Shown here: piece after piece, positions 15,001 to 18,000 of the stretch | Position numbering within the stretch: the first letter of the stretch is position 1 | Layout of the letters: every line of letters starts with the position of its first letter | DNA from: Candidatus Micrarchaeia archaeon | Lineage (GTDB): Archaea; Micrarchaeota; Micrarchaeia; Anstonellales; J096 | Direction: 5' to 3' | Length of the DNA stretch: 28,802 bases | Assembly (NCBI GenBank): GCA_041500405.1 | Contig: JBGQMB010000007.1 | Span: 1-28,802, forward strand | Made by a program: the position numbers

Positions 15001-18000
15001 TTGTGCAATATCATTGACTGCGTCATGCAGAGCGTCTGCCCGTAGTACTCTATCTCGCCTACCTTTATGACGCTGCTGTTCGGGTCGGGGCCCAGCGGGT
15101 CCGTGACCGGCGAAAGTATGACCGGCATGAGCTGGGTGAAGTCCTTGCAATGGAAGAAATTGCTGGTGAAGACAAGCGCCTCGGACGTTATCCTCGCGTA
15201 TGCCTTTGCCCTTTCCTTTTCTTCCGTCTGTTGTGCTGCCATTCAAATTACCTAATCCGGTTGCGCATGAATAATATAAATATCTTTTCCCAAAAACAGC
15301 GGAATTTATACGGAAAACGCATAAAATAAGTTGTTTTCTTGGATATTGTCCAACATAGAGACGATAAAAGTAGTTTTTCTTTCCGCAGGAGCTTTCTTTT
15401 TTCTAAATGCTTTCTTTTTCCCCAAGTGCTTTTTTCAAAAGTAGTTTCTTTTGAACCCAAGGGCCTTGCGCCAGCAGGCGCCACACATAGTTTTCTTTCC
15501 GCAGGAGCTTTCTTTTTTCTAAAAAGAAAGGAGCTTTTCCGCTGGCGCTTTTACCTGGGCCCCGCGCAGCTGGCTGGCCCTGGGAAAAGGGACATTGCCA
15601 AGGGGGGGGCTCGAACCCCCGACCTCTAGATGACCCAAAGCTTTCCTATCATCGCCGTTGAAACGGCTCAGCACTCACAAAATCGCGTTTTATGAGTCTA
15701 GCGCTCTAAGCCGGCTGAGCTACCTTGGCCTGGAAACTAATGGCTGGGCATCTTTTTTAAAACCTTGCAGTGTTTGATATAAATCAATGATTGACGAAGA
15801 GGAGTTCGAATTCATACAAAAAAGCGCTTTGGGAAACAGGAAAATAGGCTTGCTTTCTGTATTAATCCTATGCATAATAATATTAATCATATGTAAAAAT
15901 GATATCGAACTCGCGCTTTCTGGCATCGGCGTCTTAATCTTGGGTGCCTTTATATACAATCTCTGGAGAGAAGAGTCTTTTCTCCAAGTGGAAAAGATAA
16001 GGGAAAAATACAGAAAACTGGATGCAAAATCACAGAAGAATGCATTTTTTTATCATATGTACCAAGGTTCAGCGGGCGCATATAGAATAAATGCCATGGC
16101 CGTATTAGACGAGGATTGCCTGTCATTCTACCATTTTGGATATTATACAGCATTTATATTAGCAATACCCGAGCTTTTGCTAAGGCCGATTTTCCCCAAG
16201 CCCATGGAGCTAAAAGAGGATAGGGTGCTGAAATCAAGCATCACAAAAATCAGCATTGGCACTATGCCTGGTTTTATTCCAGATCCGAGATATATTGATT
16301 TTGAAGTAGGGGGAATGCAAACCTTCCGGTACAACATATTGTGGCCTCTTCCTCCAAAACAAACGGAAGGCAGATATACGATGCGTTTCTTTTCTGCAGG
16401 ACTGAAGCAGTTTGATAAATTTGCCGGTTTGGCTAAAACTAATTTTGGCGCCGTGTTTCGGTAGGGCTGCTGGCGAAGAATCAGACGACCTTGCGGATTT
16501 CATCAAGCATCTGTCTATTCATGTCTATAAGCTCCAGTATCTTCCGCCCGGCAAGCGCAGCCGACATCGGCTCGTCGCAGACGCAGAAGGTGCGCTGCTC
16601 CGAGAACCTCTTTGCCATTTCGTCAAGCGCCCATATTACATGGTCTATTTTCGACAGTTTCTGCGGCTGCAGCGACGGGTCCCATTTTGTGATGAACCCG
16701 TTGAATTCCGCGAAGCTGTTCTTCATGGCCTCTGTGTCCATCCCGTTGTCCTCCTCGAAAATTATCTTGAACGTGAAAAGCATGTATGGCTGGAACTTCG
16801 GGTTTTGTATGGCGTTGACAAGCTCCACGATTGCATTGAACCTTTGCATTGACGCGGCATTCGGGTCCCTGGCCTCAATCGCATCCGCAGAATGGAATAC
16901 GCGGTCGAATATGTATGTGAGATTCCTGTATTCCGTGAAGTTTGTGTATCCGGAAGTGACCTTGTATCCTGCAGCCGTGAACCACATCAGGTTGTTTTCC
17001 TGGATTCCAAGCGCCTTTGCCCAGTCCATAATGTTGTTCATCATCCCCTGATCCGGAGGCGCAGTTGTGGGCATCTCTTGCGCGGCTGAAGAAGGCCGCT
17101 CGGATTCCGGAAAGCCCGGAAGCATGGGCTTTATCTTGATTACCTGTGTCCTTTCGCCTTCAGCAGCGTCAAAAATAGCAGCATCCTCGAAGCCTTCGGT
17201 TGCGTGTATCGGCGTGCCATTTGGCCTTTGCTCGACCAGCGGCTCCGCGCTTTTCACGGCTGACTGTGGCGGCGCAGTCACTTGCTGCACTCCCTTGTTT
17301 AGACGTACAGTGTTTGTTTCCTGCGTCCCGTTTCCAGGGGCAGCAGCCTTCTGCGCCCCGTTCCCGTTGCCGTTGCCTGCCATAATAATCCTTTTGTGTA
17401 GTAAAATGTTTAAAAATGTATCCTTTATCCGAAAAGCCCGTTAAGGACGACCCAGTTCCAGGCGGAGAGGCCAAGATAGGCGGTCACCCCGTATTTAAGC
17501 GCCTTTCCGATGAAAACAGGCAAAAGGAACCTTTGGACCGGTATTTTTATGGTCCCTGCGGCTATCCCGGCTATGTCAAATATCGGGTTGGGTATGAAAG
17601 CCAGCAAAAAAAGGAACATAAACTCCGAGCCCTTGAGCCAGGACTTCTGCTTCTCGAACTCCGGAAGGCTCTTCAAATTAAGCGTGGAACGGCCGTAATA
17701 GCCCGCATAATAGCCAGTTAACTCGCCAAGGGCGCTCCCGATGCCGCAGGCCAGGCCCAGGACAATAGGGCTGTAATGGACGCCCATCACCGCTATTATC
17801 GGCAGGATTGTGCCCGGCAGCAATATAGTTGCGGAGCTTATGAGCGCCATGAGGAAGGCGCCGATGTAGCCAAAGGGCCCCAAGGCGTCGTACGGGATAA
17901 TGAGGGAAACAAAGAAGAAGATGACGGCGGCTATCAGCGCCGCCGCAAAATCGATAACTTCTTTTTTCAGCAAACTACTCGCACCTGAATGTCAGGGTGT

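Follow-up and report, generated by a model that had tools for sequence, protein, structure and literature searches.

A tRNA-Met intron predicted to act as a single C'/D' guide for methylation of C34 in its own precursor

The 59-nt intron within the gene for elongator tRNA-Met of a Candidatus Micrarchaeia archaeon is probably a natural half-size box C/D guide which methylates C34 of its own precursor, a reading to which we assign a probability of about 0.72. Good support for an intron-borne single C'/D' guide, predicted to place Cm34 on the tRNA that hosts it, comes from the conservation of the element, its compensatory changes, a duplex geometry resembling that of the RNP, the presence of fibrillarin, Nop5 and L7Ae, and a replacement event in one genus.

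Organization of the tRNA-Met locus

The window, i.e. the whole stretch of 28,802 nucleotides that was analysed, belongs to a genome of 916 kb that is 86% complete and whose tRNAs and genes mark it as archaeal. The tRNA-Met gene was matched by the Rfam family RF00005 with 55.6 bits, and ARAGORN, run with introns allowed, placed a 59-nt intron in tRNA-Met(CAT) (Table 1). Read from 5' to 3', the intron consists of three bases, a 5-nt loop, the 10-nt antisense, a G, the CUGA box, a hairpin, a further G, the AUGAUAG box and a 3' segment which includes the splice helix. Guide and target form a duplex of 10 bp with one G.U pair at U36, and a single unpaired G separates the guide from the CUGA box. 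In the precursor fold the antisense was paired to tRNA positions 31-37 and intron bases 1-3, and the fifth base upstream of CTGA paired with C34 at a probability of 1.0. A preliminary description of the locus had listed antisense, D box, hairpin and C box and had counted D+5 to C34; sequence and fold agree with the former, and the pair probability in the precursor fold with the latter. Judged from the sequence, the C'-like box and its preceding G would face D' with tandem G.A pairs and leave a bulge of 3 nt. The closing hairpin differs in sequence and length among relatives, with compensation. The 3' strand of the splice helix and the guide compete for the same tRNA bases (C32-A35).

Table 1 Coordinates of the tRNA-Met locus and of tRNA-Ile(UAU) in the window
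Feature	Position	Strand	Basis
Elongator tRNA-Met(CAT) gene, one intron at 37/38	15596..15729	-	Rfam RF00005 and ARAGORN
59-nt intron	15632..15690	-	ARAGORN and sequence
Target strand, tRNA 31-37 and intron bases 1-3; C34 at 15694	15688..15697	-	fold, sequence
Antisense guide TTTTGTGAGT, box-relative positions +2 to +11	15673..15682	-	fold, pairing
Box D' (CUGA; CTGA in DNA)	15668..15671	-	sequence
5-bp hairpin GCCGT-TTCA-ACGGC, canonical stem closing the putative kink-turn	15654..15667	-	fold, sequence
Box C'-like AUGAUAG	15646..15652	-	sequence; composition across 114 introns
Intron 3' segment, candidate second antisense arm	15632..15641	-	folds; pairs with 3' strand of D-loop/D-stem in exon 1
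Central helix of the bulge-helix-bulge, 3' strand; pairs with C32-A35	15634..15637	-	sequence, constrained folds
tRNA-Ile(UAU) with 29-nt intron, not part of the guide	28381..28485	+	Rfam and ARAGORN

None of the Rfam families of archaeal sRNAs reached its gathering score in the window, where only the tRNA family RF00005 was matched. The flanking genes code for a protein with an Asp/Asn/Lys-type tRNA synthetase domain and for two proteins without a Pfam match; no functional link between them and the intron guide was found. A scan for promoters and terminators returned nothing, its models being of the bacterial type and ill-suited to archaea. Downstream of the tRNA-Met gene (window 15330-15590) a T-rich stretch is repeated, at about 15370-15410 and 15488-15530. 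Elsewhere, the window contains a pilus-like operon with a type II/IV secretion-type ATPase and two T2SSF membrane proteins (7106-12072), an ankyrin protein (13708-14265) and a TspO protein (25554-26072). A nearly identical pair of tRNA-Cys(GCA) genes is located on two other contigs of the genome, one on C3 and one on C10.

Distribution of the intron guide

A search with the exon pattern matched 121 of 176 genomes of the order. Of 128 loci read (30 + 98), seven were dropped, namely two second copies, one tRNA of non-archaeal appearance, an Ile2-like gene with no intron, a gene truncated at the end of its contig and two loci that could not be parsed, which left 121 genomes. A Watson-Crick antisense to tRNA 31-35 followed by an NNGA box was present in 114 of the 121 genomes, from 11 of 12 families, and exactly one spacer base separated antisense and box in 111 of these 114 introns. 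NTGA preceded by one spacer base was found in 103 of the 121 introns and the strict CTGA in 28, so that the previously given figure of 13 of 176 genomes, from six genera and two families, was an undercount. When the introns were shuffled 200 times, the combination of a 5-bp antisense, one base and NTGA was retrieved in 0.18 introns on average and in two at most, compared to 103 of 121 real introns; this comparison rules out a chance origin of guide and box. The seven misses comprise G020, a long intron of which only 120 bases were read, and six genomes of a single genus (G149-G154). Short introns devoid of the motif had been ascribed to several relatives; they do exist, in exactly this one genus.

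A scan of GTDB contigs yielded at least 120 loci with the same design, and the matches listed included Micrarchaeota, Aenigmatarchaeota, Woesearchaeota/Nanoarchaeota, Nanohaloarchaea, Iainarchaeota, Hadarchaeota and Nanoarchaeum equitans. The exon pattern occurred in 18 of 251 genomes sampled from the phylum around G195; inspected by eye, these gave ten published genomes with the guide, four with an intronless tRNA-Met and three ambiguous cases, the unpublished genome G464 being left out of the tally. The four intronless cases show that the intron guide is not universal. Since kin genomes are not independent, all tallies given here, those of the pairing positions below included, are inflated.

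Several tRNA-Met loci deviate in other respects. Four genes (L006, L015, L026 and L027) carry an extra insertion in the T-loop, apparently a second intron. A second insertion just after the start of exon 2 was seen at L197, L225, L226 and L227 (genomes G066, G131, G133 and G134); it copies the 3' sequence of the anticodon stem and resembles a second intron in the variable region. At L159, L161, L162 (G008, G011, G012) and further loci of the clade g8/g10, the box lies two bases past the antisense core or reads CGGA, CAGA or CCGA, and kink or register may differ in this clade. The Aenigmatarchaeota-like introns L031 and L123 apparently hold two nested box pairs within the spacer.

The unspliced precursor as target

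Among the 105 introns with sufficient room, guide positions +9 and +10 formed Watson-Crick pairs with host intron bases 1 and 2 in 83 and 80 cases, but with exon 2 in only 46 and 11. G-C, A-U and U-A pairs all occur at +9. Permuting the introns gave 118±7, compared to 186 observed. The preliminary description had aimed the guide at its own anticodon loop. Positions 31-37 are indeed covered, but the covariation with intron bases identifies the unspliced precursor and not the mature loop; the mature tRNA was rejected as the tuned target because exon 2 pairs worse than the intron bases.

Position +1 of the guide was Watson-Crick paired in none of 111 introns, and pairing dropped from 93 of 103 introns at +10 to background level at +11 (32 of 102). 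The same drop, from 16 to 7, was observed in the 21 introns with a non-limiting loop. An unpaired base at +1 and an end of pairing after +10 match the C/D enzyme, for which the accessible text of two studies describes an unpaired first spacer base and a ceiling of 10 bp on the duplex (PMC9670817, PMC7229835). From these pairing patterns, the guide is predicted to form a precursor-specific duplex of RNP size. Both loci with G31 (L081 and L145) carry C at guide position +2. Positions +2 to +6 served as the search criterion, and their pairing is therefore not independent evidence beyond the shuffle test.

Kink-turn and relation to canonical box C/D RNAs

A closing stem of at least 3 bp follows the box in 103 of the 114 order introns, mostly GG/CC or GC/GC, and is itself followed by NAUGA. 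The spacer between D' and the C'-like box ranges from a few bases up to 65. The first base of D' is A in 66 of 114 introns, and most introns depart from C-G at the last box pair, with A.A in 49 of 114. None of the 114 introns has a consensus C box upstream of the guide, and just three have a second CUGA downstream that lies outside the splice helix. The absence of a second motif from the 114 introns indicates that a single kink is the correct description, and a full or circularly permuted two-motif guide was rejected on the same ground.

Measured against canonical box C/D RNAs, the 114 introns lack the terminal pair in which a box C (RUGAUGA) is matched by a box D (CUGA). By sequence they do possess an internal D'/C' K-turn or K-loop with tandem G.A pairs, a 3-nt bulge and a covarying stem, though with a degenerate last pair; L7Ae would be expected to bind it. 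The D+5 position is Watson-Crick paired, the first base unpaired and the duplex at most 10 bp long. A set of two box-coupled spacers of about 12 nt is not present, as the second arm has no fixed D box. The layout of the N. equitans type, in which an intron at 37/38 of elongator tRNA-Met combines a D box and a GC hairpin with a C-like box, was found alike in the window and in N. equitans itself (L081). The intron would behave like a box C/D guide, yet it falls outside the canonical class for lack of a C/D pair.

The intron had been called one-armed. This is accurate for the kink, which comprises a single motif, but not for the pairing arms: in 92 of the 106 order introns with at least six bases between C' and splice helix, the second arm reached -6 kcal/mol or better against tRNA 21-30. 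The mean over the 106 was -9.0 kcal/mol, as against -3.8 for shuffled sequences, while four other windows in the exons gave -2.4 to -5.0. C25 faces a G in 30 of 31 introns, and U25 faces an A in 63 and a G in 10 of 75. In the genome under study the arm is weak (-3.9) and the fold extends pairing over the intron end; among 90 parsed loci outside the order, 62 lack room for it. As no fixed box stands behind this arm in constant register, a role as second methylation guide was rejected. A second conserved antisense beside the methylation site is reminiscent of the extra base-pairing of eukaryotic C/D snoRNAs (PMC3116282), although the latter, in the accessible text, is described for rRNA, whereas the intron arm pairs with the D and anticodon stems of its host tRNA.

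Loss and replacement in one genus

In the six genomes G149-G154, the tRNA-Met introns measure 20-32 nt, share a tag and contain no guide. All six encode a canonical four-box sRNA with D+5 on C34 of tRNA-Met, its pairing including a U.U mismatch at 36, and in all six its D' arm and the tag of the Met intron form 10-11 contiguous bp. The energy of the D' arm on the Met intron was -14.7 to -17.3 kcal/mol in this genus vs -3.0 to -9.3 kcal/mol in 11 guide-keeping genomes, four further guide-keeping genomes having no C box within reach. A dedicated Met guide was considered and rejected: the sRNA is orthologous to a guide of the tRNA-Leu(CAA) type that is order-wide, its pattern being matched in 96 of 176 genomes. 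tRNA-Leu(CAA) was not found in any of five tested genomes of the genus (g3), which are 77-88% complete; tRNA-Leu(UAA), which pairs poorly with the sRNA, was found in all five. Exchange of the intron guide for sRNA and tag is one evolutionary event, but points at C34 as the function.

The studied genome also holds a canonical four-box sRNA of the Leu(CAA) type (contig C40, 1414-1462, minus strand). Its D arm pairs over 10 bp with C34 of pre-tRNA-Leu(CAA) and its D' arm over 10 bp across the junction of intron and exon 2 (U39); both arms also pair over 9 bp with pre-tRNA-Ser(CGA), and the D arm can pair with the D-loop region of tRNA-Met, with a wobble at +5. At loci L351-L380 the Leu(CAA)-type guide has two conserved types of D' arm in families f2 and f3, which show some complementarity to one another. 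Contigs C14 (13272), C15 (4471), C21 (76), C22 (5569) and C25 (11774) each hold a further candidate C/D sRNA, four of the five with perfect boxes and mostly with no tRNA match found.

Methylation machinery and AUA decoding

Fibrillarin, Nop5 and L7Ae are encoded in the genome, and 168 of 176 order genomes have a fibrillarin that scores above the cut-off. Co-occurrence of fibrillarin and guide in the phylum around G195 was weak: the protein was present in 10 of 10 guide-bearing genomes against a baseline of 188 of 251; three of the four genomes with an intronless gene were also positive, and only 18 of the 251 showed the exon pattern.

Cm34 had further been connected with the reading of AUA by tRNA-Ile(UAU). 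The AUA share of isoleucine codons, put at 57% before, is close to that value, with 55% in 453 long ORFs of the genome and 53% in 16 ORFs of the window. TiaS was not found in this genome, and within the order it occurs in only 1 of 176 genomes, which leaves no contrast for a link to tRNA-Ile(UAU). The one exception (L249, contig C132 of G171) also has an intronless Ile2-like CAU tRNA and represents either contamination or true retention. Outside the order, TiaS was present in 11 of 46 genomes that bear the guide and were chosen by hand, including 10 of the 11 titled as Hadarchaeota. As these TiaS-bearing Hadarchaeota carry the same intron guide, the AUA argument is not specific, and the proposed connection is not supported. 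Cm34 is a general trait of elongator tRNA-Met according to the accessible part of PMC6601510, which likewise speaks against a specific link to tRNA-Ile(UAU).

Proposed mechanism and alternative explanations

In the unspliced tRNA the guide folds back onto positions 31-37 and the first intron bases, as seen in fold and covariation. Following the rules of C/D RNPs, L7Ae would bind the lone D'/C' kink-turn, whereupon Nop5-fibrillarin would load the 9-10-bp duplex and methylate the ribose of C34 at D+5. The second antisense behind C', where present, may pair with tRNA 22-28 and help to keep the D and anticodon stems open. The RNA would then refold to the bulge-helix-bulge, and splicing would follow. 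Given a guide role, action in cis, within one molecule, seems somewhat favoured. The minimal loop size was dropped as evidence for cis, the floor of 3 nt having been set by the script. A tentative extension is that the cis half guide serves as a modify-before-splice checkpoint, in which the precursor, brought into a non-spliceable shape by the guide on 31-37 and the second arm on 22-28, is the substrate of a single-kink RNP and splicing proceeds only after methylation of C34 and release of the RNP. Equally tentative, and proposed jointly with it, the intron would represent a minimal natural C/D guide, common to DPANN and Hadarchaeota and evolutionarily swappable for an intron tag that borrows the guide of another tRNA.

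The same guide and target could operate in trans, where methylation of a precursor would be guided by another precursor or by the spliced-out intron in linear or circular form. The intron of N. equitans accumulates as a stable RNA (accessible part of PMC3491384), the tRNA-Trp intron guide of Haloferax works in trans, and covariation with intron bases 1-2 would fit any precursor molecule. The shortest versions, however, pair over only 5-6 bp (L122, L139, L019, L083 and L106), which is below the usual need of a free guide, and the distances from guide to A37 cluster in a sharp peak at 12 nt (75 of 199 loci). The target is moreover already taken by its own guide, which occupied it with a pair probability above 0.5 in 98 of 114 folds. 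Action in trans is considered unlikely.

A non-catalytic role is quite unlikely. Here, kink-turn and antisense would form an L7Ae-binding switch that controls folding or splicing, or stabilises the intron, with no methylation taking place. In 112 of 114 precursors the guide-paired fold was favoured over the one that can be spliced, by a mean of 7.7 kcal/mol in energies that exclude kink-turn, tertiary and protein terms, and hence must affect splicing; the boxes are also degenerate. Such a switch, however, needs neither a fixed D+5 register on C34, as reflected in the single spacer base of 111 of 114 introns, nor an unpaired +1, nor a ceiling on duplex length, and where the element was lost, in G149-G154, a four-box guide has been recruited to that base.

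A structural by-product is scarcely credible. On this reading the antisense would be an echo of the splice helix, whose pairing likewise involves C32-A35, and the boxes would be incidental. The intron 3' end does carry a similar UGAG/UGGG for the bulge-helix-bulge, which also explains the CUGA at the 3' end of 41 of 114 introns, but the guide is a separate second antisense, and in several phyla it comes together with a box, a hairpin that covaries and a C'-like box.

Comparison with known systems

A literature search, with subscription journals mostly outside its scope, retrieved no description of the self-aimed single-kink design or of its spread. The elongator tRNA-Met intron of N. equitans is known as a stable, abundant RNA with a potential box C/D role (Randau 2012, PMC3491384). 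With its guide, CUGA, GC hairpin and C-like box (L081), it is the same element as the intron described here. The supplement of that report gives "no prediction" for a target, and its accessible part, limited to one species, mentions no single C'/D' unit aimed at its own C34. This orphan RNA would gain a putative target, and reduced archaeal genomes a possible reason for retaining the tRNA-Met intron.

The tRNA-Trp intron guide sR50 is a full two-motif guide. In Haloferax and Pyrococcus it addresses C34 and U39, and its trans action has been shown (accessible text of PMC7994747, PMC11408192, PMC4090602). Like the tRNA-Met intron, it is intron-encoded and methylates C34 of its own tRNA species; unlike it, it serves a different tRNA at two sites in trans, where the tRNA-Met intron would have one kink and one methylation guide. 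The same chemical job as proposed here is performed by the haloarchaeal sR-tMet (Joardar 2011), which introduces Cm34 into elongator tRNA-Met on the pre-tRNA (PMC6601510, PMC4033218), and by human SNORD97/SCARNA97 (PMC6601510). In the accessible parts of these sources, both are separate trans-acting genes, not embedded in the target. Within the archaea studied here there would be two routes to C34, one by a guide that lies in the intron, the other by an intron tag which recruits a tRNA-Leu guide.

The closest counterparts in design are the halfmer and BMG1 guides, in which one C'/D' motif and one coupled guide directed site-specific methylation in vitro with archaeal proteins (accessible text of PMC7229835, PMC9670817). 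The doubt, raised in the preliminary description, that a lone C'/D' motif may not assemble an active RNP is partly answered by these experiments; a contrary study found single-motif archaeal RNPs active, though not site-specific (accessible part of PMC1635284), and Yang et al. judged C'/D'-only guides unlikely to assemble in cells (Yang 2020, PMC7229835). For twenty years, in vitro work has left it in dispute whether methylation by a single C/D motif can be specific. Halfmer and BMG1 guides are artificial, whereas the tRNA-Met intron would be a natural and conserved test case, and a simple one, requiring a short transcript and three proteins.
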